From SAR324 cluster bacterium (GTDB lineage Bacteria > SAR324 > NAC60-12), in NCBI GenBank assembly GCA_014382365.1, contig JACNJW010000049.1, positions 1,830 to 65,829 on the forward strand: a stretch of DNA of 64,000 nt, in the 5' to 3' direction. Position numbers and translations under genes: made by a program. The notes under the pieces are model-generated. The model was given only the letters and a program-made list of their open reading frames with translations. It was not told where the DNA came from and made no database searches. This document shows positions 8,190 through 48,125 of this stretch, in pieces (positions within the stretch are counted from its first letter, which is position 1; every line of letters begins with the position of its first letter).

Positions 8190-8201
8190 CTAATTTATTA
8201 C

Positions 8202-11427: not shown

Positions 11428-11494
11428 TTAATTTTGAATTATTGTAATCGACAACAAGAATAATTGCTTCACAAATTAATATGAAAAATTACTT

Positions 11495-15487: not shown

Positions 15488-15539
15488 ACAACGACACGAC
15501 AGGAAACAAACAACTCAAACTCAAAACTCATAACAAAAA

Positions 15540-16382: not shown

Positions 16383-16490
16383 AAATAATTGTGCATCTGG
16401 TTTTACACAGACGAACAATTAAATTCGAAATTACAATTTATAAGCTTGAAATATTTCAAAAATCTTTAACCTTTTAGCACGAACCTTAAA

Positions 16491-16736
16491 ATGGCATTAA
16501 TGATAACAGAGGACTGTACAGTTTGCGATGCTTGTATAGAACCTTGTCCAAATGAAGCAATTACTGCAGGTGAAGAAATATTTGTAATTGATGCATTGCG
16601 CTGTTCAGAATGCATTGGTACAGATGAAGAACCGCAGTGCATTGAAGTATGCCCTTCAGACTGCATTATCCCAAATCCTGATTTTGAGGAGAGCGAGGAT
16701 GAATTACAGGAAAAATACGAAATGATTCACGGTTGA
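16491..16736 (+). CDS. fdx: 2[4Fe-4S] ferredoxin (YfhL/Allochromatium type), electron donor to benzoyl-CoA reductase
   Basis: CTVCDACIEPCP and CSECIG...PQCIEVCP with insert, acidic C-terminal helix; directly after bcrD as in Thauera. Confidence 0.92.
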   Translation: MALMITEDCTVCDACIEPCPNEAITAGEEIFVIDALRCSECIGTDEEPQCIEVCPSDCIIPNPDFEESEDELQEKYEMIHG

Positions 16737-24193: not shown

Positions 24194-25017
24194 TAATCTC
24201 CTTCAAAGACAGGTTTTTCCTTTTTGACAAAAGCTTCGTAAGCCCTGACAAAATCCTGAGTCTGCATACAGATGGCTTGAGCTTGTGCCTCTGATTCAAT
24301 GGCCTGCTCGATACTCATATTCCACTCCTGATTGAGCATCGTTTTTGTTATTCCATGCGCAAAGTTGGGACCTTCTGCCAGTTTAGTAGCCATTGTCCGG
24401 GCTTCTTTCAGCAGGTTTGCGGAGTCATGCAGTTGATTAAAAAAACCCCAGCGTTCTGCCTCTTCTCCTTTCATGTTACGTCCTGAAAACAATAATTCAG
24501 CAGCACGTCCCTGACCGATTATCCGGGGAAGCATGGCACAGGCTCCCATGTCACAACCAGCTAAACCTACTTTTGAAAATATGAAAGAGACTTTGGAATT
24601 TGGTGTTCCAAGCCGGATGTCACTTGCCATGGCAAGTATAGCTCCGGCACCAACGCAAATTCCATCAACTGCAGCAATTACAGGCTGAGGACAGTTTCTG
24701 ATTGCTTTTACCAAATCACCAGTCATTCTGGTAAAGGCCAGTAATTCCTTCATGCTCATTTTTGTCAACGGTCCAATGATTTCGTGGACATCACCTCCGG
24801 AACAAAAATTATTACCTGCACCTGTAATGACAACTGCTCTTATTTCTTCAGCATAAACAAGATCTCTAAATCTGTCACGCATTTCTGCATATGATTCAAA
24901 GGTCAAAGGGTTTTTTCTGTCTGGTCGGTTAAGAGTAATGGTAGCTACGTGTTGTTCGACAGACCAGAGAAAATGTTCTGGTGACTGTTCCAGACGGGTT
25001 GTTGTTTTTCCGAGCAT
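24193..25017 (-). CDS. Enoyl-CoA hydratase/isomerase family protein (abm-cluster type)
   Basis: [40 protein letters not shown]. Confidence 0.9.
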
Positions 25018-25061
25018 AGTATTATCTCCTCAGTATTTATCAGGAATCTGTTATTAATACT

Positions 25062-25460
25062 TCAGTTGTTAAAGGGGATGACTGCAGTTGCTTCAATTTC
25101 AACCTTTGCTTTATCTTCCATCAGAGCAGTGACCTCTACAACAGACATAACTGGGTAATGTCGACCAATTTCTTCTCTATATTTTTGTCCTAATGCTTTC
25201 AATGATGCCAGGTATTCTTTTTTGGTGGTAATAAACCATGTCAATCTGGTAATGTGTTCTGCACTTGCATTTGCTGCACTAAGGATGGTCATGATATTGC
25301 GCAGAGCTTGTCCGGCCTGATCTGCAAAATCATCACTCTGGAAAGTACAAGTTTCGTCCCAGCCAATTTGTCCAGCAACAAAAATTTGACTGCCTGTAGT
25401 TAAAATTGCTTGTGAGTAACCCTTTGGAGTTTTCCAGCCTTCCGGAAGTATGTACTGCAT
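25062..25460 (-). CDS. RidA/YjgF family protein (second paralogue)
   Basis: PEGWKTPKGYS, FVAGQIGWD, HYPVMS, KVEIEATAV; start placed at ATG 25460. Confidence 0.87.
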   Translation of the reverse strand: MQYILPEGWKTPKGYSQAILTTGSQIFVAGQIGWDETCTFQSDDFADQAGQALRNIMTILSAANASAEHITRLTWFITTKKEYLASLKALGQKYREEIGRHYPVMSVVEVTALMEDKAKVEIEATAVIPFNN

Positions 25461-25613
25461 ATTATAATTTGTAAATTTTAATGTTAAAAAATTGTGAGTC
25501 AAAACAAATTAACTCATTAAAACGAAGTATTTCTGTCTTGCTAAGATTTACTTTTGAATCTTCAGCAATAATTGCCAGGTTGTTTTAAACCTTAGTATCC
25601 AGCAATGTTATAC

Positions 25614-26111
25614 TCAACTGCCAGAATTCAATTTGACAGTGTTCTGGAGCACCTCTTTCAATCTGTTCAGTGAATTTACTAATTGGTTGATTTCAGCTAT
25701 TTCCAAATCTTGTAATAGATTGCATAACCATGATTCATGTTCAGCCACCATTTTTTGAAAAAAATCACTTCCTTTGTCTGTTAACTGCACCAACTGTACT
25801 CTACCATCAACTGGAGATCTTGTATGTACAACAATTCCTGCCAGTACCATTTTGTTTACCAGCCAGGTTACATTACCATTTGTTACAATCATTTTTTCAG
25901 AAAGCTCTGATTTAGTAAGCGCCTCATTTGCTTGATCTAACACAGAGAGCAGATCGAATTGTGTTATAGTAATTCCAAAATTTTTATGTAGTTTTGTGCG
26001 TAGGTGACGTTCAATTTTTCCAGAGTTCTTTAATAAACCTAACCATAAACGTACGATTTGTTTTTTTTTAGAGTTCTGATTTGAACCAGTATGTTTAAAT
26101 TTATTTTTCAT
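25614..26111 (-). CDS. MarR family transcriptional regulator
   Basis: RLWLGLL, QFDLLS.L, VTNGNVTWLV, DGR...VQLTDKG winged-helix pattern. Confidence 0.88.
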   Translation of the reverse strand: MKNKFKHTGSNQNSKKKQIVRLWLGLLKNSGKIERHLRTKLHKNFGITITQFDLLSVLDQANEALTKSELSEKMIVTNGNVTWLVNKMVLAGIVVHTRSPVDGRVQLVQLTDKGSDFFQKMVAEHESWLCNLLQDLEIAEINQLVNSLNRLKEVLQNTVKLNSGS

Positions 26112-26875
26112 TACATAACCTCCCCACCTGCAACAGGAACAGCTTGTCCTGTAATAGATTTAGAGTCGTGTTGACAGAGCCAGAATACTGTATTGGCGAT
26201 TTCTTCAGGTTGAACAAAGCGTTTTTGAGGATTGTTTTGCAGCAGTTGCATTTGAACTTCAGCTTTGGTGTAGTTAGTCTTTTGGAAAATATTTTCAATT
26301 GCAGCTTCAGTCAGGGCAGTCTCTGTATAACCTGGACAAACAGCATTGACCGTAATTCCGTCAAGGGCGGTCTCAAGTGCTAATGCGCGAGTCAGACCAA
26401 TAACACCATGTTTAGCTGCACAATAGGCTGAAACATAAGCGTAGCCTTTTAACCCTGCTGTACTGGCAATGTTGATGATACGACCCCATTTTTGTTTTCT
26501 CATCGAAGGAAGACAAGCCTGAGTGCAGTTAAAAACACCGTTTAAATTGACAGCAAGCATCGTGTTCCAATCTTCAAGACCCATTTTATGAAACGGTACA
26601 GAAATAGCGTTTCCGGCATTATTTATTAGAATATCAACTGTACCATGATTAGCAACAGCCTTTGCAAAGCCTTGTTCTACCTGATCAAGATCAGTGACAT
26701 CTACAGACACAGCAAATGCCTGTTTTATTGTTTTTACTTTTTCCTGCAACCTGTCAAGTTTCCTCCCCATAATCGTTATTCGAGTTCCTTTTTCTGCCAG
26801 AGCATCAGTAATAGCTGCTCCAATACCGCTTCCTCCTCCGGTTATGACGACGTGTTTTTCTTGCAGTGTTTCCAT
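26111..26875 (-). CDS. Short-chain dehydrogenase/reductase (3-hydroxyacyl-CoA dehydrogenase-like, abm cluster)
   Basis: TGGGSGIG, NNAG, catalytic YCAAK, NAVCPG. Confidence 0.9.
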   Translation of the reverse strand: METLQEKHVVITGGGSGIGAAITDALAEKGTRITIMGRKLDRLQEKVKTIKQAFAVSVDVTDLDQVEQGFAKAVANHGTVDILINNAGNAISVPFHKMGLEDWNTMLAVNLNGVFNCTQACLPSMRKQKWGRIINIASTAGLKGYAYVSAYCAAKHGVIGLTRALALETALDGITVNAVCPGYTETALTEAAIENIFQKTNYTKAEVQMQLLQNNPQKRFVQPEEIANTVFWLCQHDSKSITGQAVPVAGGEVM

Positions 26876-29154
26876 TAAATTAGTGATTCTATTTCCAAGG
26901 CACGTTGTGTATTGATTTCCAACTGTTTCTTTCCTGCAAGATACTGAACCGGCCAGGCCTGATCAAGATAGCTATGTCGTGCTGCTGCATGTAAGGTCCA
27001 GTAAGGATTACTTAAATGCGGACGTGCAAGGCAGCACAAATCTGCTCTTCCGGCTGCAATGATGGAATTGACGTGGTCGGTTTCAAATATTGCTCCAACA
27101 GCAATTGTTGGTACATGTCCTTCATTTCTTATACGGTCCGAAAAAGGTGTTTGAAACATACGTCCATAGACAGGTTTTTCATTGATATTAGTTTGACCGG
27201 ATGAGACATTAATAATGTCTGCACCAGCATCGTAGAACATTTTGGCAACCAAAACTGCTTCATTGTCATCAATACCTCCTTCTACCCAGTCGTGTGCAGA
27301 GATTCTTACTGAGATTGGCTTTTGTTCAGGCCAGACAGCGCGAATTGCTGCAAAAACTTCCAGTGGAAAGCGCATCCTGTTGGTTAAACTTCCTCCATAT
27401 TCGTCCGTACGTTTGTTGGAAAGAGGTGTAATGAATGATGAAAAGAGGTATCCATGTCCGCAGTGAAATTCAAGCATATCAAAATCACATTCTTCTGCCA
27501 TTTGAGCAGATGCTACGAATTGCTGTTGAATTTCCTGCATCTCTACTTTGCCTAGTTCATGTGGGATTTGATCTTTATAGGGTGCTGCAGAAGGGCCGAC
27601 GACTGGCCAACCATGTTCCAAAGCCATATCCTGACCTTCCCACAGTATTTTTGTAGAACCCTTAGGTCCGGCATGTCCTAATTGTAAAGCAATTTTGGCC
27701 TGACTTTGCTGATGCACAAAACCAACAATCCTTTTCCAGCCATTTTGATGCTCTTGATTATACATGCCAGCACAACCGGGTGTTATGCGGGCCTCTTCTG
27801 AGACATGTGTCATTTCTGTAATAATTAAACCGGCACCTCCTATTGCACGGGATCCATAATGTACAAGGTGGAAATCATCAACCAGACCATTTTTAGAACT
27901 GTACATTGCCATTGGTGAAACAACAACACGGTTGACAAGATTCATTTTTCTCAGCTGAAATGGAGTAAACATTGGGGCAATAGGTGTTGGTGATGTTTTG
28001 CCGGTAGCATTTTTTGCAAATTCAGATTCCATACTCTCGAGCCAGCCTTTATCACGCAGACGCAGATTTTCATGACTTACTCGTTGACTTCTGGTAAGTA
28101 GACTGTAAGTAAACTGAGTAGTGGAAAAATTAGTATATCGGGGTAGATTTTCAAACCAGGCAGTACTGTTTCTGGCTGCATTTTGCAGTCGGAACACTTC
28201 AATTTCACGCTCTTCCTGGTATTTTTTGAAGGCATTTTGCAAATCAGTTTTCTGGTTGATGCACTCTGCAAGGCAGATACCGTCTTCAAATGCGAGCTTT
28301 GTCCCTGAACCTATTGAAAAATGTGCTGTGTGTACTGCATCTCCTAAAAGAACTATGTTTTTGTGATACCAGTGCTTGCAGGTTACTCTGGGGAAATTCA
28401 TCCAGACTGAAGAACCTCGGAGATGCTTTGCATTTTCCATGAGAGAATTACCATCCAGATAATCGGCAAACAGATTTTCACAGTAAGCAATGGCTGCTTC
28501 CTTGCTCATCTTATCAAAGCCAAGAGCGCTCCAAGTTTCAGGTTCACACTCAACGATAAAAGTACTTAAATCTGCTGAAAAACGATATGCATGCGCCCAA
28601 ATCCATCCTTTATCTGTCTTGATGATAATAAAAGTAAAGGCTTCAAATAATTTGTGGGTTCCAAGCCAGATAAATTTATTTCGGCGTTGATCAATATCAG
28701 GTTGGAAATATGCTTCGTGTTGTGTGCGGATTTTGCTGTTAATACCATCAGAGGCAACCACAAGATCATAATCTTCAAAAGAATCAGAATTGTCTATTTG
28801 TGATTCAAAAACCTGCTTGATGCCTAATTCGGCGGCACGTTCCTGTAAAATAGACAATAAACGCAAGCGGCCGATACCAATAAATCCGTGTCCTCCTGAC
28901 CTGATGACTTCTCCGTGTATGTGTACATCGATGTCATCCCAATAGGCAAAACTGCGGCGGATTGTTTCAGCACTTTCCGGATCATTGGCCTGAAGATTCT
29001 CCAGAGTTTGATCAGAGAAAACTATCCCCCAGCCGAATGTGTCATGCGGTTTGTTTTGTTCCAGTACTGTAATATCATACTCAGGATTTCTTATTTTCAT
29101 CGAAATGGCAAAGTAGAGCCCTCCCGGACCTCCGCCAATACAAACTATTTTCAT
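26875..29154 (-). CDS. abmA: Bifunctional 2-aminobenzoyl-CoA monooxygenase/reductase or salicylyl-CoA 5-hydroxylase (FAD monooxygenase + Old Yellow Enzyme fusion)
   Basis: GGGPGG, TFGWGIVFSD, GDAVHTAHFSIGSGTKLA; OYE half with NRVVVSPMAMY, QLGHAG, HGYL, NKRTDEYGGS. Confidence 0.88.
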   Translation of the reverse strand: MKIVCIGGGPGGLYFAISMKIRNPEYDITVLEQNKPHDTFGWGIVFSDQTLENLQANDPESAETIRRSFAYWDDIDVHIHGEVIRSGGHGFIGIGRLRLLSILQERAAELGIKQVFESQIDNSDSFEDYDLVVASDGINSKIRTQHEAYFQPDIDQRRNKFIWLGTHKLFEAFTFIIIKTDKGWIWAHAYRFSADLSTFIVECEPETWSALGFDKMSKEAAIAYCENLFADYLDGNSLMENAKHLRGSSVWMNFPRVTCKHWYHKNIVLLGDAVHTAHFSIGSGTKLAFEDGICLAECINQKTDLQNAFKKYQEEREIEVFRLQNAARNSTAWFENLPRYTNFSTTQFTYSLLTRSQRVSHENLRLRDKGWLESMESEFAKNATGKTSPTPIAPMFTPFQLRKMNLVNRVVVSPMAMYSSKNGLVDDFHLVHYGSRAIGGAGLIITEMTHVSEEARITPGCAGMYNQEHQNGWKRIVGFVHQQSQAKIALQLGHAGPKGSTKILWEGQDMALEHGWPVVGPSAAPYKDQIPHELGKVEMQEIQQQFVASAQMAEECDFDMLEFHCGHGYLFSSFITPLSNKRTDEYGGSLTNRMRFPLEVFAAIRAVWPEQKPISVRISAHDWVEGGIDDNEAVLVAKMFYDAGADIINVSSGQTNINEKPVYGRMFQTPFSDRIRNEGHVPTIAVGAIFETDHVNSIIAAGRADLCCLARPHLSNPYWTLHAAARHSYLDQAWPVQYLAGKKQLEINTQRALEIESLI

Positions 29155-29446
29155 TACATTTATCCGTATATCTGTGGTTAAAATTTAATTAATTATGCTC
29201 TCAGTATTTTCTGCAATTATAAGTTAATCTTAGTGCCTTCTGCTTTCAGTGATTTACGAATTGAGTATGTTTAGCAGGCAAAAAATATGACTGCAAATAT
29301 TACGTGTGCGCCATCAGTCAGTACTAACGAAAAATCATACAAAAAATTGAATATAATAACTATTTGTGATTATATGCTATGAATTATGCTGCTGTTTTTA
29401 ATAGTACTGTAATCCTAATCAACTGGTAGACCCAGCAACGTGTGAT

Positions 29447-29497
29447 AGTATACTTTCGGATTATTGGATTGTCAATAAATATTTTAAATTTAAAATA
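29447..29497 (-). promoter_or_regulatory. Sigma70 promoter for the abm-like operon with adjacent perfect palindrome (candidate MarR site)
   Basis: Minus strand TTGACA (29475-29470)-N17-TATACT (29452-29447); TATTTTAAATTTAAAATA 18-bp palindrome at 29480-29497. Confidence 0.55.
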
Positions 29498-29679
29498 AAA
29501 TTATCGCAATGATCTAAACTCTACAAATAATTTATGTGGTGAAAAATTAATTAAGTAAAATAATCTTGCGTTTAATAGACCTTTTTAAGGAAAATGCGGG
29601 TATTGTTTATTTTGTCAGGTTTATTTATATTTAATAAATTTGAAAGCAGATCTTTTATACATCAGAATTGGAGGAACTC

Positions 29680-31486: not shown

Positions 31487-33427
31487 ATGCCTAAAGGCTA
31501 TACCGGAAAAATATTACATGTGAATTTGACTCAGGGTGAACTGATAATTGAAGAACCTGAGGAACAATTTTATCGGACCTATATGGGAGGCAGTGCCTTG
31601 GGAATGCATTATGTGCTGAAGGAAACTTCTGCAGGTGTGGATGCCTTAAGTCCGGAAAATGTACTGGCCTTGTGTACAGGAGTGGTTACTGGAACACCTA
31701 TCTCCGGTCAAAGCCGCTTAACTGCTGTTGCAAAATCACCACTGACCGGCTGCATTGGAGATTCGCAGGGTGGAGGATTTTTTCCTGCACAAATGAAATT
31801 TTCAGGATTTGATGCAGTAATCATCAAAGGTAAATCTCCTAAACCGGTTTTTTTGTGGCTGCATAATGGCGAAGCTGAATTACGTGATGCTGCACATTTA
31901 TGGGGACTGACTACTGGTGATGCAGAAGACAAGCTCAAAGAAGAACTGGATGACAAGCGCATTGAAGTCCTGCAGATAGGTCCGGCAGGAGAAAATCTTG
32001 TAAATTATGCTGCACTGATCAGTATGAGCAACAGGGCCAATGGACGAACAGGAATGGGTGCAGTGATGGGTTCAAAAAACCTCAAAGCAGTTGTGGTTAG
32101 AGGCAAGCAGAAACCTGAAATTGCAGACCCTGACACATTTAAAGAACTGCAAAAGTGGGGTACTGCCAACCTCGAGGCCACAGGCATGGACGGTTTTGGA
32201 AAATATGGGACACCGAGTGTTACCACACCTCAGGACAAAGTGGGGGGACTGCCAACCTATAATTTTAACAGTGGAACTTTTGATCAGGCTGCTGAAATAG
32301 ATGGAGTCAAGTTATATAAAGAGCGTTTACGTGGTCATGAAAGAGATGAACAGAATCGTTTTGGCAGGGATACTTGTTTCAGTTGTACAGTAAAATGTAA
32401 ACGTGTGACACAAATCGATGAAGGGCCTTATAAAACTGAGGCAAAATACGGAGGCCCTGAATACGAAACAATTGCAACATTTGGAAGTTATTGTGGAGTC
32501 AGCGAGATGGATGCCATTATCCGTGCCAATGCATTGTGTAACATGTACGGTATGGATACGATTACCTGTGGTGCCACAATTGCCTGGGCCATGGAATGTT
32601 GGGCTGAAGGTAAGTTGTCAGCAGAAGATACCGGCGGCATTGAACTGGTTTACGGAAATGCAGAAGCAATGGTGCAAATGACAGAAATGATTGCTAAATG
32701 TGAGGGCTTTGGAAAAATACTCGCCAAAGGTTCACGTAAAGCAGCCGAAATTATTGGTCGCGGAACGGAGGAATATTTGATTACGTGTAAAGGTCAGGAA
32801 GCTCCGGCTCACATGCCGCAGGTTAAACGAAGTCTCGGTATTGTTTATGCTGTCAATCCTTTTGGGGCAGATCATGAGTCCAGCGAACATGATGGCTCAT
32901 ACAAGGCCTTTCCAGAGAGGATGGAATATATTGGTCTGACGAAACCACAGGAAAAACTTGCGTTGAATAAAGAAATGATGCGTTTTGCAATGGTCACCCA
33001 GCATTTATTTAGTGCGATCGACAGTCTTTCAGTGTGTTCTTTTATTTATGGTCCTGCGTGGCAACTTTATGGTGCGGATAAGCTGGTGGAAGTGGTTAAT
33101 GCTGTCACCGGATGGGATGTTGATATTGAAGAATTATTAGAGGTCGGTGAGCGTCGTCTCAATATGCTGAGAGCTTTTAATTCACGTGAAGGTATTGGCC
33201 GTGAGTCTGATACACTACCCAAAAAGATGTTTAAACGTCCATTAGAAGGCGGCAGGTCAGATGGATATGCCTTGGATGAAGAAGAGTGGGAAAGAGCACT
33301 TGAAGATTATTATCGTCTCTGCGAATGGGATGTAGAGACAGGGCATCCTTCACTAAAGAAGATGGAATCACTTGGTCTGGGCTGGGTAGTTGCTGAGAAT
33401 GAAGCACTCTCACAAGTTGTTAGCTGA
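31487..33427 (+). CDS. aor: Aldehyde:ferredoxin oxidoreductase (tungsten/molybdopterin AOR family)
   Basis: GYTGKILHVNLT, KSPLTG, IGPAGE, GRTGMGAVMGSKNLKA, CFSCTVKC, GPEYET, GMDTI. Confidence 0.92.
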   Translation: MPKGYTGKILHVNLTQGELIIEEPEEQFYRTYMGGSALGMHYVLKETSAGVDALSPENVLALCTGVVTGTPISGQSRLTAVAKSPLTGCIGDSQGGGFFPAQMKFSGFDAVIIKGKSPKPVFLWLHNGEAELRDAAHLWGLTTGDAEDKLKEELDDKRIEVLQIGPAGENLVNYAALISMSNRANGRTGMGAVMGSKNLKAVVVRGKQKPEIADPDTFKELQKWGTANLEATGMDGFGKYGTPSVTTPQDKVGGLPTYNFNSGTFDQAAEIDGVKLYKERLRGHERDEQNRFGRDTCFSCTVKCKRVTQIDEGPYKTEAKYGGPEYETIATFGSYCGVSEMDAIIRANALCNMYGMDTITCGATIAWAMECWAEGKLSAEDTGGIELVYGNAEAMVQMTEMIAKCEGFGKILAKGSRKAAEIIGRGTEEYLITCKGQEAPAHMPQVKRSLGIVYAVNPFGADHESSEHDGSYKAFPERMEYIGLTKPQEKLALNKEMMRFAMVTQHLFSAIDSLSVCSFIYGPAWQLYGADKLVEVVNAVTGWDVDIEELLEVGERRLNMLRAFNSREGIGRESDTLPKKMFKRPLEGGRSDGYALDEEEWERALEDYYRLCEWDVETGHPSLKKMESLGLGWVVAENEALSQVVS

Positions 33428-33473
33428 GACTGATAATCAGTTGGAATAATCAACAAACAAAACGGGTGAATTT

Positions 33474-34544
33474 GTGGCGAATCAAAGCAGACGTCCACTG
33501 ACAGAATCAAGTTCAGTGCAAGATGAGTTCTGGAATCAGGATGTACTAAAAGAAGTACACACCAGAAGTCCACAAATGCTCAAGACATTTGAAAAGGTCA
33601 AGTCTGTGGCTCCAACAAAAACTACAGTTCTGCTGCAGGGAGATACCGGAGTTGGTAAAGGCATGGTAGCCAAACTGATTCACCAGCACAGCAGTCGAAA
33701 AAATGAGGCTTTTGTACATGTCCATTGTGGTGCATTGCCGGAAACTCTGGTAGAGAGTGAATTGTTCGGTTATGAAAAAGGTGCTTTTACGGGTGCAGTA
33801 AAACGCAAGCTTGGACGTTTTGATAATGCACAGCGGGGTACTATATTTCTGGATGAGATTAATACAATTTCCGGAACAATGCAGATAAAATTGCTTCAAG
33901 TTCTGCAGGAACGTATTTTTCAGCGTGTTGGCGGAGAAGCACCTATTGAGTCTGATGTTCGTGTGATTGCCGCATCCAATTCAGATTTGCAGCAATTGTG
34001 TGACGATGGCTATTTTCGTAAAGATCTCTATTACCGCCTCAGTGTATTTCCTCTGGAAATACCCTCATTACATCAACGCTCCGAAGACATTCCTGAGTGG
34101 ATTGATTATTTGATTGACTGGTTTAACAGGCTTTATTTTAAAGAAATACAAGGTGCAGACCCTCTGGTTGTCAAGGCTCTTGTGGAATATTCCTGGCCTG
34201 GAAATATTCGAGAATTAGAAAATGTTATTGAAAGAGCATATATTCTTGAAACAACACCAGTTCTCATGCCTGAGAGTTTTCCGCAGGAATTATTTTCTAC
34301 AGCAAATAATACTGCTGAAGTCTCACTGGACATTACCCAGACTCTTGCAGAAGTCCGTCGGCAAAGTATGGAGCAGCTTGAAAGACAGTATCTTAAGGAA
34401 CTGCTGAGAAAACATCAGGGGCGTATAAATCGCTCTGCTGAAACAGCTGGCATCACGACAAGACAGCTTCATAAACTTCTCAGAAAACACGTAATCCGCA
34501 AAGAAGAATTCAAGCCTGCTTTTACTTCATCTACAAATAAATAA
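33474..34544 (+). CDS. Sigma54-dependent transcriptional activator (AAA+ and HTH, no N-terminal sensor domain)
   Basis: GDTGVGKG, ESELFGYEKGAFTGA, FLDEI, FRKDLYYRL, WPGNIRELEN, C-terminal Fis-like HTH. Confidence 0.88.
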   Translation: MANQSRRPLTESSSVQDEFWNQDVLKEVHTRSPQMLKTFEKVKSVAPTKTTVLLQGDTGVGKGMVAKLIHQHSSRKNEAFVHVHCGALPETLVESELFGYEKGAFTGAVKRKLGRFDNAQRGTIFLDEINTISGTMQIKLLQVLQERIFQRVGGEAPIESDVRVIAASNSDLQQLCDDGYFRKDLYYRLSVFPLEIPSLHQRSEDIPEWIDYLIDWFNRLYFKEIQGADPLVVKALVEYSWPGNIRELENVIERAYILETTPVLMPESFPQELFSTANNTAEVSLDITQTLAEVRRQSMEQLERQYLKELLRKHQGRINRSAETAGITTRQLHKLLRKHVIRKEEFKPAFTSSTNK

Positions 34545-39368: not shown

Positions 39369-40865
39369 TTAAATACTTTGGACTCCAACTACGTTTTGGC
39401 CTTTTAGTTCCTTTAATGTTACCCGCAGCAGTTGATTTCTTAAATCAGGACCGTTTAGATCTTCCAGCACCACACGTATATAATTATCCGTGTAGCCACT
39501 GATTGTACCGTCAGGTTTTCGTGCTTCCCAAAGCACGTTTCTAGTTTGAGCTAAAAACCGCTGATTAAAAGTGCGGCGCTTTTTGCTACTCAAAGAACGT
39601 AATATTTCACCGCGCCTCTGCTTAACTTGTGGATTTATTTGTGCTTCCATCCGGAATGCAGGAGTTCCTTCACGTGTAGAAAAAGGGAAAACATGAAAAT
39701 AAGTTAGCGGCAATTTGTTCAGTAAGTTTAGAGTACTTTCAAACTCAGCCTCGTTTTCTTCAGGAAACCCCACCATGACATCTGTACCGAGACACAGATC
39801 CGGAACGCTCTCGAAGGCTCTCCATATTTCATCGGCATATTCAGTAGCAGTATAACGGCGTTTCATTTGGCTGAGAATAATATCGGATCCAGATTGCAGA
39901 GGCAGGTGGAAAAATGGCACCAGTTTATGTTGTGGATCAGACATGTATTGAAAAAGTATTTCCGGAACAGTAGTTGGTTCAATAGAGCTAATACGGATGC
40001 GGGACAGTCCGGGAAGAGTGTTGAGAAAATCAATCACATCTACAATAGAGCGTTTTCCTGTTTTATAAGTACCCACGTTAACACCTGTGATTACTATTTC
40101 CTGAACGCCCTCATCAAGCAGCATCCGTGCTTCTTCCTGCAAATTTTGAAATTCACGGTAGCGGGAACGACCTCTTGCAAAGGGAATAATACAAAAAGAA
40201 CACATGAAATCGCAACCATCCTGTATTTTTAAAGAAGCGCGTGTGTTTTGCTGTGACATAGAATCACAGATTTGTTGAGGTTCTGAGGCAGTGGAGTTGT
40301 CAGCCTGACCTAGCTTAAGAGCTTGATATTTTGTGCTTTTAGTAATGTATGCAGTACTGTGTGGAATTACCGGATTAGTAAAAGTGCTTTTGTTTATTTT
40401 TGGCCGCACAATTATAGGCGACTTATGAGAATCAATTTGAGACAGATAATCTGTAATCTGCATTTTTTCAGCACTGCCTATGACCAGGTTAACTCCTTCA
40501 ATAGCTGCAATTTCCTCTGGATTAATCTGCGCATAACAACCTACTACAGCAATTGCTGCAGCAGGATTCTTCCGGTGCAGTGTTCGAATTAACTGTCGGT
40601 TTTTTGCATCACTGGGCTCTGTAACGGTACAGGTATTTATCACACAGACTTCTGCCTGTGCTGTTTCTGCAACAACAGTATAACCCTGCTGTTCAAAACT
40701 ACGAGAGAGGGTTTCAGTTTCAGACTGGTTTAAGCGGCAACCGATGGTATGGAAAGAGACACGTTTATTTGCTGGAGCGGCACTATAATCGAACTCGTTA
40801 TTTTCAACAGTTACCGAATCTGTACTACTAGCAGTCTCAGTCAGAAGTGACATTTGGCGGGTCAA
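39369..40865 (-). CDS. mtaB: tRNA t6A37 methylthiotransferase (radical SAM)
   Basis: TIGCRLNQSE, INTCTVT, GCYAQ, KIQDGCDFMCSFCIIPFARG, HVFPFS.REGT, GYTDNY; alternative start ATG 40853. Confidence 0.9.
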   Translation of the reverse strand: MTRQMSLLTETASSTDSVTVENNEFDYSAAPANKRVSFHTIGCRLNQSETETLSRSFEQQGYTVVAETAQAEVCVINTCTVTEPSDAKNRQLIRTLHRKNPAAAIAVVGCYAQINPEEIAAIEGVNLVIGSAEKMQITDYLSQIDSHKSPIIVRPKINKSTFTNPVIPHSTAYITKSTKYQALKLGQADNSTASEPQQICDSMSQQNTRASLKIQDGCDFMCSFCIIPFARGRSRYREFQNLQEEARMLLDEGVQEIVITGVNVGTYKTGKRSIVDVIDFLNTLPGLSRIRISSIEPTTVPEILFQYMSDPQHKLVPFFHLPLQSGSDIILSQMKRRYTATEYADEIWRAFESVPDLCLGTDVMVGFPEENEAEFESTLNLLNKLPLTYFHVFPFSTREGTPAFRMEAQINPQVKQRRGEILRSLSSKKRRTFNQRFLAQTRNVLWEARKPDGTISGYTDNYIRVVLEDLNGPDLRNQLLRVTLKELKGQNVVGVQSI

Positions 40866-41293
40866 ATAGTTGGCTGAGGAATATCTTCTTGATAGTAATG
40901 CATGGTCTTGAGGAATGTGTCAATACTGATTGAGTTCAAAGTTGCAATGGCAATATCATCAATTTCTAGCATTATTTGTGAAAGTGCGATCCCGATTTCG
41001 GTATCGTCACCTTCTTCAGGAATAACCGGAGGTTGTCTGATATCTTCAAAAACCTCTGCAATATCCAGAAGAGTAGTTCGCTTTTTATTTCCGATAAAGC
41101 GATAACCACCACCAGCTCCACGCACTGAAGTGACTAAACGTGAGCGGACTAATGAGTGGAGTACTTTTACTAAATGGTGAACTGAGATTTCGTATTTGTT
41201 AGCAATTTCAGTCGCTGAAAGGTGACGCTCAGGACTGTTTGCTAACTCCAAAACTGCAAAAAGTGCAAAGCGTGTTGCTTTATTTAATTTCAT
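40862..41293 (-). CDS. badM: Cys-free Rrf2-family repressor, BadM-like
   Basis: AVLELA, IANKYEIS.HHL.KVL, SVRGAGGGYRF.GN.KRTTL; no cysteines; adjacent to a BadL-like GNAT. Confidence 0.75.
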   Translation of the reverse strand: MKLNKATRFALFAVLELANSPERHLSATEIANKYEISVHHLVKVLHSLVRSRLVTSVRGAGGGYRFIGNKKRTTLLDIAEVFEDIRQPPVIPEEGDDTEIGIALSQIMLEIDDIAIATLNSISIDTFLKTMHYYQEDIPQPTI

Positions 41294-41341
41294 AGTCTTT
41301 CAAGGATAATAAGTTTTCTGCAGTATTTATAGAATACGGTT

Positions 41342-41833
41342 TTAATTTGTAACATTTTTTTCGAGTTGAATAAATGGGCCACTCCGCATTCCCTGACTGC
41401 GAAAAAAAGACATATTCAGATTGTCGTTGCGTGCCAGCATAGTACGAACCTTGTCAATTCCTGCCTCTCTAAAGTGTTCACAGACACTTTCAAACAAACC
41501 GCTTCCTACACCCATTTCACGTGCATCATTATGTACACCTAGAGCAAAAATCCAGCCGCAGGGTGGTGAACCAAATTCCCAGGCTCGAACTTCGCCTAGA
41601 ATATATCCACAAAAACAAGAGTCGTTTTCTGCAACATGGAAAAAACCGTCGTAACTGTTGCCGTAACGTTCAAAGGCATCGCTCCAATAATCTTCCTTTT
41701 TTATCCCTGTATTTTGTGAGTCCAACTTTATTATTTCCGGAAGATCTGCAGCAATTGCATCGCGAATAATAAATTTGTGTTCCGGTGATATGGTCTCAGT
41801 CTGATGGATTATGTGTGGTTCTTTTTTACTCAT
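41342..41833 (-). CDS. badL: GNAT N-acetyltransferase, BadL-like
   Basis: GEVRAWEFGSPPCGWIFA.GV, VRTM, SFFRSQGM..GP..QLEK pattern as in BadL-type proteins. Confidence 0.75.
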   Translation of the reverse strand: MSKKEPHIIHQTETISPEHKFIIRDAIAADLPEIIKLDSQNTGIKKEDYWSDAFERYGNSYDGFFHVAENDSCFCGYILGEVRAWEFGSPPCGWIFALGVHNDAREMGVGSGLFESVCEHFREAGIDKVRTMLARNDNLNMSFFRSQGMRSGPFIQLEKNVTN

Positions 41834-41888
41834 ATCATGATCTTTCTAACTTGACTCTCTGTAACCTAAATTGTATCGTTGTATTCTG

Positions 41889-41912
41889 AAATAAGTAATT
41901 TAGTACTTATTT
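41889..41912. promoter_or_regulatory. Palindromic operator between badL and boxC (candidate BadM site)
   Basis: AAATAAGTA-ATTTAG-TACTTATTT with perfect 9-bp arms; weaker copy at 41941-41964. Confidence 0.65.
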
Positions 41913-41999
41913 TAAGCATAATATTGGAAGAGCCAAAAGTCAAAGTAATATTTGGTACTTAGTTAAGCTCTCAAATTAATCAGGAGGTAATTAATAATA

Positions 42000-43649
42000 A
42001 TGATTGAATTTAACACAGACCCTGACCAGTATCAACACTGGTCTGTAGAATACAACAGTCCTATAGCAACTTTAAAGTTGAAAGTTAACGAAGATGGAGG
42101 TTTGCAGCCAGGATACAAATTAAAACTCAATTCTTATGATTTAGGAGTTGATATAGAATTACATGATGCAGTTCAGCGGTTGCGTTTTGAGCATCCGGAA
42201 ATTAAGACCGTAGTGCTGACTTCAGCCATGGAAAAAGTGTTTTGTGCCGGAGCAAATATTAAAATGCTTGGACTCTCTACTCATGCACATAAAGTGAATT
42301 TTTGCAAATTTACAAACGAAACCAGAAATTCAATTGAGGACGCAAGCCGCTTTTCCGGACAAACATATATCACGGCCGTTAATGGCACTGCTGCAGGCGG
42401 TGGATATGAACTGGCTCTTGCCAGTGATTATATCATGCTGGTTGATGACAGTTCCAGTGCAGTATCATTGCCGGAAGTACCACTGTTAGCAGTATTACCT
42501 GGTACAGGAGGATTGACTCGAGTTGTTGATAAACGCAAAGTACGTCGTGATCATGCAGACTTTTTTTGTACAGTTACTGAGGGAATGCGCGGCAAACGTG
42601 CAGTTGAGTGGAACCTGATTGATGAACTTGTACCTCGTTCAAAATTTATAGATACAGTAACAGAACGTGCTTTAGAATTTGCAGAAAAATCTTCAAGGCC
42701 GGATGATGTGCAGGGTATCACTCTGACTCCGCTCAAGCGCAAAATTGAAGGTGATCGAATCAGCTATGAGCATCTTACTATCGAATTTGAACGCAGTTCT
42801 GGAATTGTAAACCTGACTCTGCATGCACCAGAAAGTGATTTGCCGGCAGAACCAGAAAGTATACTGGTTGCAGGTGCAGATTACTGGCCTTTGGCAATTG
42901 CTCGAGAACTCGACGATGCTATCATGCATTTGTCCTTTAATGAACTTGAGTATGGTACATGGGTCATACGTACAAAAGGTAGCGCAGATTTAGTCGCAGC
43001 AGTTGATCAGACCTTAATTGCCCATCAGGATCACTGGCTGGTGCGGGAAATTATGCTGAACCTAAAACGTGTCTTTAAACGTCTTGATCTGGTAGCTCGT
43101 AGTCTGATTACTTTAATAGAACCCGGAAGTTGTTTTTGCGGTACTTTGTTGGAATTAGTTTTGGCGGCAGACAGAAGTTTTATGCTGGACGGCACATTTG
43201 AAGACAGCGAGATGGATCCGGCTGTACTGAAGCCAACTGAAATGAATTTTGGTCCACTTCCCATGTGTAATGATTTAACACGTTTGCAAACGCGATTTTT
43301 GAATAATCCTGACAAAGTAGAAAATGTGCGGTCAGAAATCTGTCAGGACCTGGACGCAGTTGCAGCTGATGAATTAGGCTTGGTGACGTTTATTCCGGAT
43401 GATATTGATTGGGAAGATGAGGTGCGACTGGCTGTAGAAGAACGGGCCAGTTTTTCACCGGATGCTTTAACCGGAATGGAAGCATCGTTGCGTTTTGCCG
43501 GACCGGAAACATTGGAAACAAAAATCTTCGGCAGACTGACTGCATGGCAAAACTGGATTTTTCAAAGGCCAAATGCAGTAGGCGAAGAGGGTGCTTTACA
43601 GCTCTATGGAACTGGACAACAAGCCGATTTTGATAAAAAGCGCGTTTAA
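42000..43649 (+). CDS. boxC: 2,3-epoxybenzoyl-CoA dihydrolase
   Basis: Y.LKLNSYDLGVDIEL.DA, HAHKVNFCKFTNETRN, PEVPLLAVLPGTGG, LTAWQNWIFQRPNA; RBS AGGAGG. Confidence 0.95.
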   Translation: MIEFNTDPDQYQHWSVEYNSPIATLKLKVNEDGGLQPGYKLKLNSYDLGVDIELHDAVQRLRFEHPEIKTVVLTSAMEKVFCAGANIKMLGLSTHAHKVNFCKFTNETRNSIEDASRFSGQTYITAVNGTAAGGGYELALASDYIMLVDDSSSAVSLPEVPLLAVLPGTGGLTRVVDKRKVRRDHADFFCTVTEGMRGKRAVEWNLIDELVPRSKFIDTVTERALEFAEKSSRPDDVQGITLTPLKRKIEGDRISYEHLTIEFERSSGIVNLTLHAPESDLPAEPESILVAGADYWPLAIARELDDAIMHLSFNELEYGTWVIRTKGSADLVAAVDQTLIAHQDHWLVREIMLNLKRVFKRLDLVARSLITLIEPGSCFCGTLLELVLAADRSFMLDGTFEDSEMDPAVLKPTEMNFGPLPMCNDLTRLQTRFLNNPDKVENVRSEICQDLDAVAADELGLVTFIPDDIDWEDEVRLAVEERASFSPDALTGMEASLRFAGPETLETKIFGRLTAWQNWIFQRPNAVGEEGALQLYGTGQQADFDKKRV

Positions 43650-43779
43650 TTATTTTGTTTTTAAAATAGGGATCAGAGACGATACAGAATTGTTTGAGCA
43701 AACTAAGTCAATTCTATAGTATCAACTCCCTCAATTTAGATTTTAATCAATACATTTAAGAAGATTAGCAAAGGTTTTA

Positions 43780-45195
43780 ATGAAAATTAATTATAATGAA
43801 AAAATACCCAACAATGTAGACCTCAGCAGTGACCGTCGCTTACAGCGTGCTTTGGAACGTTGGCAACCGGAGTTTTTAAACTGGTGGGACGAACTGGGAC
43901 CTGAAAATAGTATGGAACTTGAGGTGTACCTACGCACTGCAATCAGTGTTGAAAAAGAGGGTTGGGCACATTTTGATTATGTGAAAATGCCAGATTATCG
44001 TTGGGGTATTTTTCTAACTCCTTCAGATTCAGACAGCAAAATCAATTTTGGTATTCATAAAGGACAACCAGTCTGGCAGGAAGTTCCGGGAGAGTACCGT
44101 TCAGAGTTGCGCCGTTTGATTGTAACACAGGGTGACACTGAACCTGCTTCAGTTGAACAGCAAAGATATTTAGGCAATACCTGCCCTTCACTTTATGATT
44201 TACGCAACCTGTTTCAGGTCAACGTTGAGGAAGGTCGTCATTTGTGGGCCATGGTTTATTTGCTGCAGGCTTATTTTGGTAGGGATGGTAGAGAAGAAGC
44301 AGAAGCCATGCTGGAGAGACATTCAGGTGATCCGGATAAACCCAGAATTCTGGAAGCATTCAATGAAGAGACTCCGGACTGGCTTTCATTTTTTATGTTT
44401 ACATATTTCACGGATCGAGATGGAAAATTCCAATTGGGTTCACTGGCAGAATCCGGATTTGATCCCCTTGCCCGTTCGTGCCGTTTTATGCTGACAGAAG
44501 AGGCACATCACATGTTTGTGGGAGAAACCGGTGTGGGAAGAGTTGTACAGCGAGCCTGTGATTTAATGAATGACTACAATACTGATGATATTCGGCAGTA
44601 TGGAGGTATTGATTTGCCGACAATTCAAAAATACCTGAATTTTCATTTTAGTGTTTCAACAGATTTATTTGGCCAGGAACTCTCTACAAATGCGGCAACT
44701 TATTATAATACCGGAATCAAAGGTCGATTCGGAGAAACAAAAATTGATGATGATCATTTGCTGCATGATTCAAATTATTCAATTCTGGAATTGTGTGGAG
44801 ATAAGATTGTCAGTACCGATGTTCCTGCTTTGAATGCAGTCAATGAACGCTTGCGGGATGATTACATTGTAGACTGCGATTTAGGAGTACGGCGTTGGAA
44901 CAAAATAATTGAAACTGCCGGAATTGATTTTCGCCTCAAACTGCCTCATCGTGCGTTTCACCGTGGAATTGGGCAATTTTCCGAAATACAAACTGATCTT
45001 GAAGGCAAAATCATCTCTCAGGCAGAATGGGATCAACGTCAGCAGGATTGGCTTCCAACTCAGGAAGATCAGGCCTTTGTACAGTCTTTAATGCAACAGG
45101 TTTTGGAACCAGGGAAAATTGCGGGCTGGATCGCTCCGCCAAAAGGTAAAATCAACCGCCAGGATTTTGAGTTTGAGTTTGTACGCTTCAACTGA
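43780..45195 (+). CDS. boxB: Benzoyl-CoA 2,3-epoxidase diiron subunit
   Basis: IPNNVDL, QGDTEPASVEQQ, VNVEEGRHLWAM, TDRDGK, TEEAHHM. Confidence 0.95.
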   Translation: MKINYNEKIPNNVDLSSDRRLQRALERWQPEFLNWWDELGPENSMELEVYLRTAISVEKEGWAHFDYVKMPDYRWGIFLTPSDSDSKINFGIHKGQPVWQEVPGEYRSELRRLIVTQGDTEPASVEQQRYLGNTCPSLYDLRNLFQVNVEEGRHLWAMVYLLQAYFGRDGREEAEAMLERHSGDPDKPRILEAFNEETPDWLSFFMFTYFTDRDGKFQLGSLAESGFDPLARSCRFMLTEEAHHMFVGETGVGRVVQRACDLMNDYNTDDIRQYGGIDLPTIQKYLNFHFSVSTDLFGQELSTNAATYYNTGIKGRFGETKIDDDHLLHDSNYSILELCGDKIVSTDVPALNAVNERLRDDYIVDCDLGVRRWNKIIETAGIDFRLKLPHRAFHRGIGQFSEIQTDLEGKIISQAEWDQRQQDWLPTQEDQAFVQSLMQQVLEPGKIAGWIAPPKGKINRQDFEFEFVRFN

Positions 45196-45305
45196 TTTCG
45201 CGGAAAATTTGACACAGTTAGTTTTAGAAGCACGGATTTAAACTTTTAGAGAAATAATCCGTGCCAAGCTGTGAAGACAATGGAACTTTAAAACCAGGGA
45301 AAAAC

Positions 45306-46904
45306 ATGCAAAAAAACACCGTTAGCATTGATACTTCTGTCAGTCCGGCAAAAATAGAATATTCAGCAGTTTTTAATGTTGCCGTACCGTTTATCGATCG
45401 CCACCTTGATGAAGGCCGCAAAGATAAAGTCATCATCCGCACAACAGGTGGAGAAGAAGTGACTTTTGGAGAATTGGCTGAGAGAGTAAACCAGTCAGGA
45501 AATGTATTAATAAAATTAGGTTTGCATTCAGGTGACCGGCTTTTAATGATGGTCAAGGATTCACCGGAATTTTTCTATCTGTTTTGGGGTGCGATTAAGG
45601 CGGGAATTGTGCCTGTTCCTTTGAATACACTTTTGCGTGCCAAAGATTATGCTTTCATGATTGAAGATTCCGGAGCAGCAGCTGTGATCTACTCACCGGA
45701 ATTTCAAGGTGAAGTTGAACCAGCCCTGGAACAACTGACAACAAAACCGGAAATAGTTTTACTGACTGAAGGCGAATCCGGATGTTTTCTGGAAAAAATG
45801 AATTCTGCAGATTCTAATCTTGAAGCTGCTCCAGCGTCCGCTACAGATGATTGTTTTTGGCTTTATTCATCAGGAACCACAGGACGACCAAAGGGTGCGG
45901 TGCACAGTCACCGTGATATGATTTTTACCAGTCAGCATTACGGCAATGATACTCTAGGTGTACGTGAAAATGATCTATGTTTTTCTGCAGCAAAGTTGTT
46001 TTTTGCTTATGGTCTGGGGAACGGTATGACCTTTCCGTTGTGGGCAGGAGCAAGTTGCGTTTTATTTCCTGCCCGCCCCACACCAGAAACTACTTTTGAG
46101 GTGATTGAGAGATTTAAACCGACTCTTTATTTTGGTGTGCCAACACTTTATGCTGCTCAGTTACAGGCACTTGAATCTGCGGAGAGTGAAAGCAGCACTC
46201 CGGATTTTTCTTCACTACGGATGTCTGTTTCTGCAGGCGAGGCCTTACCGGCAGATATTTTCAGGCGCTGGAAAGAACAGAGTGGAACGGTAATTTTAGA
46301 CGGCATAGGTTCAACTGAAGCCCTGCATATTTTTATTTCAAATCGTGCGGATGATATCAAAGCCGGAAGCAGTGGGCGCATGGTTCCTGGATATGCCGCA
46401 AAAATTGTGGATGAACAAGGTAATGAAGTTAGCAAAGGTGAGGAAGGACGGTTGCTGATTCAGGGTGATTCAAGTTGTAAATATTATTGGAATAATCCGG
46501 AAAAAACTGCAGCCACTATTGTAGACGGCTGGCTCAATACCGGAGACACCTATCATCAGGATGAGGAAGGCTATTATGTATATGGAGGTCGTAGCGACGA
46601 CATGATGAAAGTCGGCGGAATTTGGTGTTCGCCTTTTGAAATTGAGGCCAAATTGGTGGAACATCCAAAAGTACTGGAAGCTGCGGTTGTTGGAAGGGAG
46701 GATGATTCAGGTTTAATCAAACCTGAGGCACATGTGGTTCTTAAAGCTGCAGCAGATGCAACAGATGAAACTTCTGTAGAATTGCTTCAGCATTGTAAAA
46801 AAGGACTGGCACCTTACAAATATCCGCGCTGGTTCCAGTTTCCAGCAGAGTTGCCGAAAACCGCAACCGGTAAAATACAGCGTTTTAAACTACGTTCAAA
46901 ATAA
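45306..46904 (+). CDS. bclA: Benzoate-CoA ligase family protein
   Basis: WLYSSGTTGRPKG, SAAKLFFAYGLGN, DGIGSTEALHIFISN, TGD, LPKTATGKIQRF; ATG 45306 preferred to GTG 45261. Confidence 0.88.
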   Translation: MQKNTVSIDTSVSPAKIEYSAVFNVAVPFIDRHLDEGRKDKVIIRTTGGEEVTFGELAERVNQSGNVLIKLGLHSGDRLLMMVKDSPEFFYLFWGAIKAGIVPVPLNTLLRAKDYAFMIEDSGAAAVIYSPEFQGEVEPALEQLTTKPEIVLLTEGESGCFLEKMNSADSNLEAAPASATDDCFWLYSSGTTGRPKGAVHSHRDMIFTSQHYGNDTLGVRENDLCFSAAKLFFAYGLGNGMTFPLWAGASCVLFPARPTPETTFEVIERFKPTLYFGVPTLYAAQLQALESAESESSTPDFSSLRMSVSAGEALPADIFRRWKEQSGTVILDGIGSTEALHIFISNRADDIKAGSSGRMVPGYAAKIVDEQGNEVSKGEEGRLLIQGDSSCKYYWNNPEKTAATIVDGWLNTGDTYHQDEEGYYVYGGRSDDMMKVGGIWCSPFEIEAKLVEHPKVLEAAVVGREDDSGLIKPEAHVVLKAAADATDETSVELLQHCKKGLAPYKYPRWFQFPAELPKTATGKIQRFKLRSK

Positions 46905-46934
46905 AATATAACAGACCTAACCAAAAGGAATAAG

Positions 46935-48125
46935 ATGTTAAACAATGCCTTCATACCTTACCGTGGCTATTACAGTTCTCCATTTGCACGCTGGCAGGGT
47001 AGTTTTGCCAATGAAAATGCGATCAAATTGGGAGCAGAAACCTCTAAACGCTGGTTTGAGCAAAAAAAATGGGATCCCAATATCATTGATTATTTGTTTC
47101 TGGGATCAACGGTGCATCAAAAACACGGCTTTTACGGAGGTCCCTGGGCTTCAGCTATGATGGGTGCAGAAAACATTCCTGGAGTTATCATCAGCCAAGC
47201 CTGTTCAACTTCCACAATTTCTGTTTATCAGGCAGCAATTGGCGTGGAAACAGGAATGTATGAAACTGCCTATTGTTTGATGACCGACCGTTGTTCCAAT
47301 GGTCCTCACAGTCTCTGGCCTAATCCGGGCGGACCTGGTGGACAGGTAGTTTCTGAAGATTGGGTGATGGATAATTTCAACAAGGATCCCTGGGCCGGTG
47401 GTGCAATGATTCAAACTGCAGAAAATGTGGCTGGAGTGGCAGGCTTGACACGTGAGCAGTGTGATTCAATCACCTTGAGGCGTTATGCACAATATCAGGA
47501 TGCACTTGCGGATGATCGTGCTTTCCAGAAACGCTACATGTTTCCGGTGGAATTGAAAATTTCCAGAAAGAAAACTATTACTGTTGATGCCGACGAAGGT
47601 ATTACAGAAACCACTGCAGAAGGTCTGGAAAAACTTCGACCTGTGATGCCGGACGGTGTTCACACTTTTGGCTCACAAACTCATCCTGCTGACGGTCAAA
47701 GCGCAATCACTGTGACCACAAGAGAAAAGGCCGATGAACTGAGTGAAGATACCAATATCAGCATTCAGGTTTTGTCTTACGGTTATGCCCGTACAAAAAA
47801 AGCACATATGGCGATGGCCGTTGCTCCTGCATCACAAATGGCACTCAACGGAGCAAATATCAAGGCCGGAGATTTGACTGCCGTCAAAACACACAATCCT
47901 TTTGCTTCCAACGATTTGTACCTGGCACAGGAGCTTGGTCTGGACGTTGATTCCATGAATAATTATGGTAGTTCCTTAATTTATGGACATCCACAGGGGC
48001 CAACTGTTGGACGTTTGCTGATGGAAGGTATTGAAGAACTGGTAATAAAAGGCGGCGGAAATTTACTGGTTGCCGGTTGTGCCGCTGGAGACACTGCTGC
48101 AGCAATTGTTTTGAAAGTCAGTTAA
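46935..48125 (+). CDS. Thiolase family protein
   Basis: Active-site SQACSTS, KTHNPF, YGHPQG, GCAAGD. Confidence 0.85.
   Translation: MLNNAFIPYRGYYSSPFARWQGSFANENAIKLGAETSKRWFEQKKWDPNIIDYLFLGSTVHQKHGFYGGPWASAMMGAENIPGVIISQACSTSTISVYQAAIGVETGMYETAYCLMTDRCSNGPHSLWPNPGGPGGQVVSEDWVMDNFNKDPWAGGAMIQTAENVAGVAGLTREQCDSITLRRYAQYQDALADDRAFQKRYMFPVELKISRKKTITVDADEGITETTAEGLEKLRPVMPDGVHTFGSQTHPADGQSAITVTTREKADELSEDTNISIQVLSYGYARTKKAHMAMAVAPASQMALNGANIKAGDLTAVKTHNPFASNDLYLAQELGLDVDSMNNYGSSLIYGHPQGPTVGRLLMEGIEELVIKGGGNLLVAGCAAGDTAAAIVLKVS

Follow-up and report, generated by a model that had tools for sequence, protein, structure and literature searches.

The region considered here lies on contig JACNJW010000049.1 of a SAR324 cluster bacterium (assembly GCA_014382365.1; 3,245,711 bases, genome 92% complete) and was analysed as one stretch of 64,000 nt with 42% G+C, hereafter referred to as the window. 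It contains, on the reverse strand, three adjacent genes encoding a BadL-like GNAT acetyltransferase, a BadM-like Rrf2 regulator and an MtaB-type tRNA methylthiotransferase, a group that open reading frame (ORF) coordinates place divergently from boxC, the first gene of an aerobic benzoyl-CoA operon. A 24-nt palindrome located between the two divergent units has matching counterparts 33.7 kb from the GNAT-Rrf2 pair, at the anaerobic had-bcr operon, and sequence comparisons lend good support to one BadM-type repressor that would have operators at this aerobic operon as well as at its anaerobic counterpart.

The GNAT gene (41342-41833, reverse strand; 163 aa; PF00583, 43.5 bits) comes first in the regulator operon and is followed by the Rrf2 gene (40862-41293, reverse strand; 143 aa), whose product matches TIGR00738 with 88.2 bits (cut-off 73.3) and PF02082 with 79 bits. 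The MtaB gene (39369-40865, reverse strand; TIGR01579, 405.8 bits) shares the first 4 nt of its frame with the end of the Rrf2 gene, so that both are probably co-transcribed. One would not expect MtaB in an operon with a catabolic regulator; it is also found 3' of Rrf2 in the three closest relatives of the window locus (L001-L003) and in L016 and L022. The Rrf2 translation has no Cys at all and hence lacks the three Cys by which IscR, NsrR and RirA bind their Fe-S cluster, and it scores below the cut-off of every named NCBIfam equivalog, namely IscR (48.7 vs 207.6 bits), NsrR (40.1 vs 182), CymR (45.6 vs 195), RirA, HypR and the SUF regulator. Among 80 Rrf2 homologues compared, 39 are Cys-free and no conserved Cys column occurs; BadM is itself described as devoid of Fe-S Cys in a 2026 preprint (bioRxiv 10.64898/2026.06.27.734994). 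The genome has one other Rrf2 gene, with a product 31% identical to that of the window. A first-pass annotation of the window had noted a GNAT and a Cys-free Rrf2 divergent from boxC, and the coordinates, the family models and the Cys count bear this out.

For the comparison of loci, GNAT relatives were scanned with one genome per species, which yielded 388 coding stretches, and the best 80 loci were studied; the GNAT family as a whole matched 1102 homologues. Rrf2 lies directly downstream of GNAT in 78 of these 80 loci, which belong to several phyla, and 16 diverse GNAT members share 42 invariant columns, including the motif RAWEFGSPP..GW. The nearest named relatives of the window GNAT are from SAR324-cluster metagenome-assembled genomes (MAGs; 73% and 67% identity), and the protein is 52% identical to the homologue of Paramagnetospirillum marisnigri, while for the window Rrf2 an identity of 57% was found with P. 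magneticum BAE52195.1. The 90% cluster of the latter includes the Rrf2 of L035 (Paramagnetospirillum caucaseum) and a protein that one source names BadM, and amb3392, which encodes a BadL homologue, is presumably the neighbour of BAE52195.1. In silico, these identities support a common GNAT-Rrf2 family for the window pair and the BadL/BadM homologues of Magnetospirillum, in agreement with the BadL/BadM-like label first given to it. No close solved structure was found for either protein, the best matches being at E 0.004 for GNAT and at E 1e-8, over the helix-turn-helix (HTH) only, for Rrf2.

On the other side of the palindrome, boxC (42000-43649, forward strand; TIGR03222, 914 bits) opens an aerobic operon (42000-48125, forward strand) in which boxB (TIGR03225, 854 bits), a gene of the benzoate-CoA ligase family (TIGR02262, 622 bits) and a thiolase-like gene follow with short same-strand gaps. 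A search for BoxA (TIGR03224) at E up to 1e-5 detected none in the 92%-complete genome, and none of five other genomes with a pair-linked box cluster, one of them a single contig of 5.44 Mb, has a BoxA over the cut-off; these pair-linked box systems seem to occur without this usual reductase component. The arrangement is not peculiar to the window genome, since boxC (25 loci) or boxB (two loci) is found within 600 bp upstream of GNAT in 27 of the 80 loci. In the same tally the gene labelled was a ligase in 15 loci, bcrC in three, dch in one and a Rid gene behind korAB in one, and no query protein was found in 33; where unlabelled loci were inspected, the genes encountered included NuoE/NuoF-like ones in Paramagnetospirillum and, in one MAG (L056), an indolepyruvate:ferredoxin oxidoreductase (IOR)-like gene as the divergent neighbour of GNAT.

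The palindrome between the divergent GNAT and boxC promoters (41889-41912, hereafter O-box) is the sole match to its 24-mer in the window at up to three mismatches, with none expected, and alignment of the GNAT/boxC intergenic region with that of relatives indicates that it has been kept while the flanks have diverged. Expectation-maximisation, with the palindrome of the window as seed, converged on a 24-nt motif of consensus AAATCGGTACCGAAATACCTATTT, and the family consensus can be written AAATnGGTAC-N4-rTACCnATTT. With L001-L003 set aside, the best match reached at least 13 bits and lay more than 20 bp upstream of GNAT in 56 of 77 loci; many of the genomes concerned have 60-70% G+C, in which such an A+T-rich palindrome is unexpected by chance. 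The final matrix was built from 52 unique sites of these 56 loci, with the window and L001-L003 left out. The box-side palindrome is thus supported in silico as a putative conserved operator of the GNAT-Rrf2 family.

Two further features of this motif were observed. Overlapping matrix matches offset by 8 nt are common (e.g. L004:5876/5884, and 20541/20549 in the G084 region), which suggests an operator made of three GTAC-like units with 8-nt spacing and not a simple two-arm palindrome. In 11 Magnetospirillum-type loci, a strong match (23.8-31.0 bits) is located inside the GNAT frame, within an insertion specific to this lineage (at L035:6160-6183 and correspondingly in L025, L029, L030, L032, L041, L042, L051, L052, L062 and L065), where it could serve as an internal roadblock or in the control of an internal promoter for the Rrf2 gene.

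The motif is specific on the scale of the genome. When both strands of the whole assembly were scanned with the matrix and distinct sites were ranked, O-box came first (26.4 bits), and two sites in the kor/had intergenic region of the window came third (8166-8189, 21.1 bits, hereafter O-had2) and fifth (8095-8118, 17.0 bits, hereafter O-had1). The fourth site (C20:26997, 19.5 bits) is inside an ORF without family match and was treated as chance. In a first-order Markov simulation of 5 Mb at 27.6% G+C, the composition of the two promoter regions, 10 matches on both strands together reached 17 bits or more but not one reached 21 bits, which corresponds to ca. 0.001 expected in the 421-nt kor/had region. 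Of the 28 intergenic regions of the window that are longer than 60 nt, only GNAT/boxC and kor/had have a site that reaches 12 bits. The right half of the palindrome, AGTACTTATTT, occurs in exact copies at 8108, 8179 and 41902, and at up to one mismatch it has six matches in the window against 1.48 expected, a number reached in none of 100 shuffles. Recounting by hand confirmed the identities of 17/24 and 18/24 to the box site, and the identical half, that the first-pass annotation had given for the had/kor sites. A second palindrome-like stretch at ca. 41944-41967, which falls within a binding probe proposed there (41889-41964), did not hold up, as it has a negative score with the family matrix and is absent from relatives.

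The second-ranking site (C22:56497-56520, corresponding to L081:4498-4521; 21.2 bits) is 14 bp upstream of an IOR-alpha-like gene that sits in a cluster of 2-oxoacid:ferredoxin oxidoreductases. A 23.8-bit site occurs at the same place at the orthologue in G001, and none in G005. This gene is a possible third member of the regulon.

The two had/kor sites precede the anaerobic set of genes, which comprises had, oah, dch, bcrC, bcrB, bcrA, bcrD and a YfhL-type ferredoxin gene (8288-16736, forward strand), and in which the ring-pathway genes all score above their NCBIfam equivalog cut-offs. Divergent from this operon are korB-korA (5300-7866, reverse strand), encoding a 2-oxoglutarate:ferredoxin oxidoreductase, which may be a further target. 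Both sites are included, together with a TTGACA box, in a direct repeat of 34 nt (8094-8127 and 8165-8198; 91% identical, 71 nt apart). The had side was also compared in loci of 2.6-4.1 kb fetched from four related genomes with a had orthologue, and in all four the two best sites of the locus are upstream of had, with 18.5/13.6, 18.5/13.8, 14.4/10.7 and 22.1/19.7 bits, respectively. In other lineages, the motif is found between bcrC and GNAT (L072, L078 and L079), between dch or oah and korA with the pair located behind korAB-Rid (L070, G391 and G271), and upstream of had (L050). Its occurrence at box as well as bcr/had/kor promoters across lineages indicates a recurrent regulatory link and not a peculiarity of the window. 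The shared operator of the box and had-bcr operons put forward in the first-pass annotation is therefore upheld, as far as sequence can tell, by the matrix ranks, by the four relatives and by the other lineages.

A narrower regulon, in which the Rrf2 would control only its own and the box operon and the had/kor matches would be mere remnants or be bound by some other protein, appears very unlikely. It would account for the degenerate left halves of the had sites, for their common origin in one duplication, and for the position of one of them upstream of the -35 hexamers of both promoter-like sites that flank it (see below); but the had sites hold their genome ranks with a matrix trained elsewhere, the four relatives keep had-upstream sites despite diverged flanks, and the motif recurs in other lineages at the promoters of bcr, kor and had.

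The position of the sites relative to promoter-like sequences fits repression, because the operators overlap the predicted transcription starts. At the box side, a promoter-like site for boxC (TTGACT-17-TATCGT, 41851-41879, forward strand) and one for the GNAT-Rrf2 operon (TTGACT-17-TATGCT, 41915-41943, reverse strand), the latter kept in L001 as TTGACA-17-TATGCT, would give two transcripts that begin at opposite edges of the operator and both traverse it, O-box beginning 10 nt and 3 nt past the respective -10 hexamers. An Rrf2 dimer bound to the 24-nt palindrome would cover the predicted starts of these two overlapping divergent promoters, and one bound repressor would thereby shut both its own operon, which implies autoregulation, and boxC-boxB-ligase.

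At the kor/had side, promoter-like sites are directed towards had at 8130-8158 (TTGACA-17-TAAATT, forward strand) and 8202-8230 (TTGACA-17-TAAAGT, forward strand) and towards korA at 8062-8090 (TTGACA-17-TAAAGT, reverse strand). O-had2 begins 8 nt past the -10 hexamer of 8130-8158, and its location just downstream of this predicted promoter would put had-oah-dch-bcrCBAD-ferredoxin under the same repressor. O-had1, between the kor-side and the first had-side promoter-like sites, has its homologue in the had-proximal site of relatives. The kor/had region of G001 and G003 spans only ca. 145 nt and contains a pair of overlapping promoter-like sites placed back to back, each with an operator of its own behind it. 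Compared with this situation, the window has retained O-had1 and has gained, by duplication, one more operator along with two strong promoter-like sites, the tandem had promoter-like sites having arisen with the 34-nt repeat. The kor side of the window also has ca. 230 extra bases relative to relatives, with a 19-nt inverted repeat (7981-8020).

This geometry also bears on whether the Rrf2 could be an activator or an architectural factor at the had region rather than a simple repressor. A gap of 11 nt separates the end of O-had1 from the -35 hexamer of 8130-8158 downstream of it, and one of 12 nt separates the end of O-had2 from that of 8202-8230; both operators are thereby at positions typical of activators. 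However, O-had2 also follows closely on the -10 hexamer at 8153-8158, the compact and ancestral-looking arrangement of relatives has each operator downstream of a -10 hexamer, and two publications present BadM of Rhodopseudomonas palustris as a repressor (PMC6191541, PMC6678401), so that we give such a role very little probability.

Taken together, we consider it probable that a BadL/BadM-type module represses both the box and the had-bcr operons via a shared 24-nt operator and that a ligand supplied by the GNAT releases the repression. The module would consist of a small-molecule N-acetyltransferase and a Cys-free Rrf2 repressor encoded in one operon with MtaB, and the regulon may extend to korAB. 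Induction would take place when the GNAT product, presumably an acetamidobenzoate as in R. palustris, frees the repressor from the DNA.

Several points weigh against this interpretation. The two had sites derive from one duplication and, not being independent, count as one event, so that the three-site observation amounts to two; and the palindrome of the window, used as seed, still guided the choice of sites even though the final matrix excludes the window. The promoter-like site at 8202-8230 lies downstream of both had operators and could escape repression if active. The matrix scan detected no operator downstream of the kor promoter-like site in the window, where the kor-side operator of relatives is undetectable; the earlier proposal that KorAB belongs to the regulon thus finds support in the relatives but not in the window itself. 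At up to one mismatch, neither promoter region was found to have an FNR-type box (the 11 matches counted over the whole window, with 5.7 expected, are near chance), and an O2-sensitive reductase induced together with an O2-requiring epoxidase would need some further oxygen control. The BadL/BadM naming was reached via the Magnetospirillum pair, and the only DNA for which binding has been reported from experiment is the badC-badD region of R. palustris. Finally, the concentration of acetamidobenzoate needed for release in vitro (10 mM, see below) makes the natural ligand of BadM uncertain even in R. palustris. Repression of had-bcr is plausible in the light of these points, and perhaps leaky.

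A possible trace of transcription comes from one RNA library with four small contigs that match the Rrf2, GNAT, boxB and thiolase-like genes at 99% identity or more and with a depth of 3-5. Starts and levels are not readable from such contigs and DNA carry-over is possible, which makes them a mere hint. Two sequencing runs labelled metatranscriptomic are probably DNA.

The nature of the signal is the part of the model for which another explanation must be taken most seriously. The regulon and the repressor would stand, but the GNAT would acetylate some other amine or be unrelated to the regulation, and the Rrf2 would sense e.g. benzoyl-CoA or benzoate. In the analogous BoxR/BzdR system, induction is known to be brought about by benzoyl-CoA, and the window proteins share just 52-57% identity with the Magnetospirillum pair. 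In R. palustris, BadM represses badDEFGAB and BadL makes the acetamidobenzoates that release it (PMC6191541); according to that paper, freeing BadM from the badD promoter in vitro required 10 mM acetamidobenzoate, and no kinetics were measurable for BadL homologues. On the other hand, MmBadL (amb3392 of M. magneticum) and GmBadL (Gmet_2096 of G. metallireducens) acetylate 2-, 3- and 4-aminobenzoate, and heterologous BadL genes, amb3392 among them, partly complement a badL deletion of R. palustris (PMC6191541). The conserved adjacency of GNAT and Rrf2 and the invariant GNAT columns described above further argue for one conserved function of the GNAT that is tied to the regulator. A different signal is regarded as unlikely, and the effector is presumably an acetamidobenzoate, by homology to the Magnetospirillum pair.

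Genomes of 401 evenly drawn alphaproteobacterial species were searched for BadI (TIGR03210) and the GNAT, the latter being carried by 27 of the 401 species. None of the eight regions cut from this search has the R. palustris bad arrangement: three BadI regions are without bcr, GNAT and Rrf2, and five GNAT regions contain pairs linked to box or to kor/bcr.

Regulators seen in the window besides the Rrf2 are a MarR, a sigma-54 activator and a hybrid kinase. The first-pass annotation had seen no BoxR/BzdR-type regulator, and this agrees with the present data, in which no protein combining an HTH with a shikimate-kinase domain was found among the scanned window ORFs or in the 92%-complete genome; the only shikimate-kinase domain of the genome belongs to a stand-alone protein of 215 aa without HTH, encoded between tRNA-modification and RNase G genes.

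Two other groups of genes are located between the had-bcr operon and the pair. The first (23024-29154) includes an AbmA/salicylyl-CoA 5-hydroxylase-type gene (PRK08255, 1249 bits) together with SDR, MarR, Rid, enoyl-CoA hydratase and acyl-CoA dehydrogenase genes; this abm-like cluster has its own MarR regulator and is without a CoA ligase of its own. It had been thought to consume the precursor of the signal, a suggestion that finds no support: no operator was found in its promoter regions, the best scores being 3.0 bits in 29155-29667 and -1.8 bits in 25503-25613, and the key enzyme is a salicylyl-CoA 5-hydroxylase by NCBIfam. The second group (31487-34544) consists of an aldehyde:ferredoxin oxidoreductase-like gene followed by the gene of a sigma-54 activator without receiver domain, and adjoins an aromatic-acid-type MFS transporter gene.

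Among known systems, a functional parallel is that of Azoarcus sp. CIB, in which, owing to related operators, a single type of repressor serves the aerobic as well as the anaerobic benzoyl-CoA pathway; cross-regulation of the box and bzd genes by BoxR and BzdR was reportedly described there by Valderrama and colleagues in 2012. These regulators differ from the window system in that they join an HTH-XRE to a shikimate-kinase-like domain and respond to benzoyl-CoA, whereas the window has an Rrf2 and a GNAT predicted to make the signal. With BadM/BadL of R. palustris the window pair shares a Cys-free Rrf2 adjoining a GNAT of the same family, the association with benzoyl-CoA reductase and the repressor-type operator position, but it is divergent from aerobic box genes with an operator of its own and has its matching sites 33.7 kb away, whereas the only target of BadM in the literature consulted is badDEFGAB. 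The Magnetospirillum amb3392/Rrf2 and Gmet_2096 systems have what looks like the same GNAT-Rrf2 pair, going by the identities to Paramagnetospirillum homologues given above; in Magnetospirillum-type loci, however, the divergent neighbour is NuoE/NuoF-like and the strong operator is in the GNAT frame instead of being intergenic. CymR (PDB 2y75) has in common with the window Rrf2 a winged-helix fold without Fe-S cluster, but differs in partner protein, operator and regulon, as well as by the low score of the window protein against its model.

In the literature consulted, control of the box pathway has been described only for BoxR in Betaproteobacteria, and BadM only for one anaerobic operon of R. 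palustris. A 2024 survey reports BadM only in anaerobic ligase contexts of Alphaproteobacteria, and BoxR with box clusters (PMC10803450), and a 2016 paper mentions a ligase-BoxB-BoxC cluster in SAR324 bins with no discussion of its regulation (PMC4782131). A full-text literature search returned no BadM-type regulator linked to box genes and no definition of the present operator, and a 2023 preprint was found to say nothing on a BadM binding site; the primary BadM papers are outside this search, so that a footprint may exist. The present analysis adds a concrete operator consensus for the BadM family and indicates that the pair is attached most often to box genes.

It would be a much larger step, and one that looks doubtful at present, to see in BadL/BadM-type modules a widespread master switch that would govern benzoyl-CoA metabolism independently of O2 across Alphaproteobacteria, SAR324, Myxococcota and Gemmatimonadota, with a BoxA-less BoxB sharing its supply of low-potential ferredoxin (KorAB/IOR-like enzymes plus the ferredoxin of the bcr operon) with benzoyl-CoA reductase. 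If true, such a shared electron supply would be the reason why aerobic and anaerobic routes share one operator.

The prediction that follows from these data is that one repressor ties together the box genes, the bcr/had genes and possibly kor in several phyla, including the abundant SAR324 of the dark ocean. If so, the still puzzling signalling by acetylated aminobenzoates would no longer be confined to one model organism but would represent a general switch of aromatic-carbon turnover.

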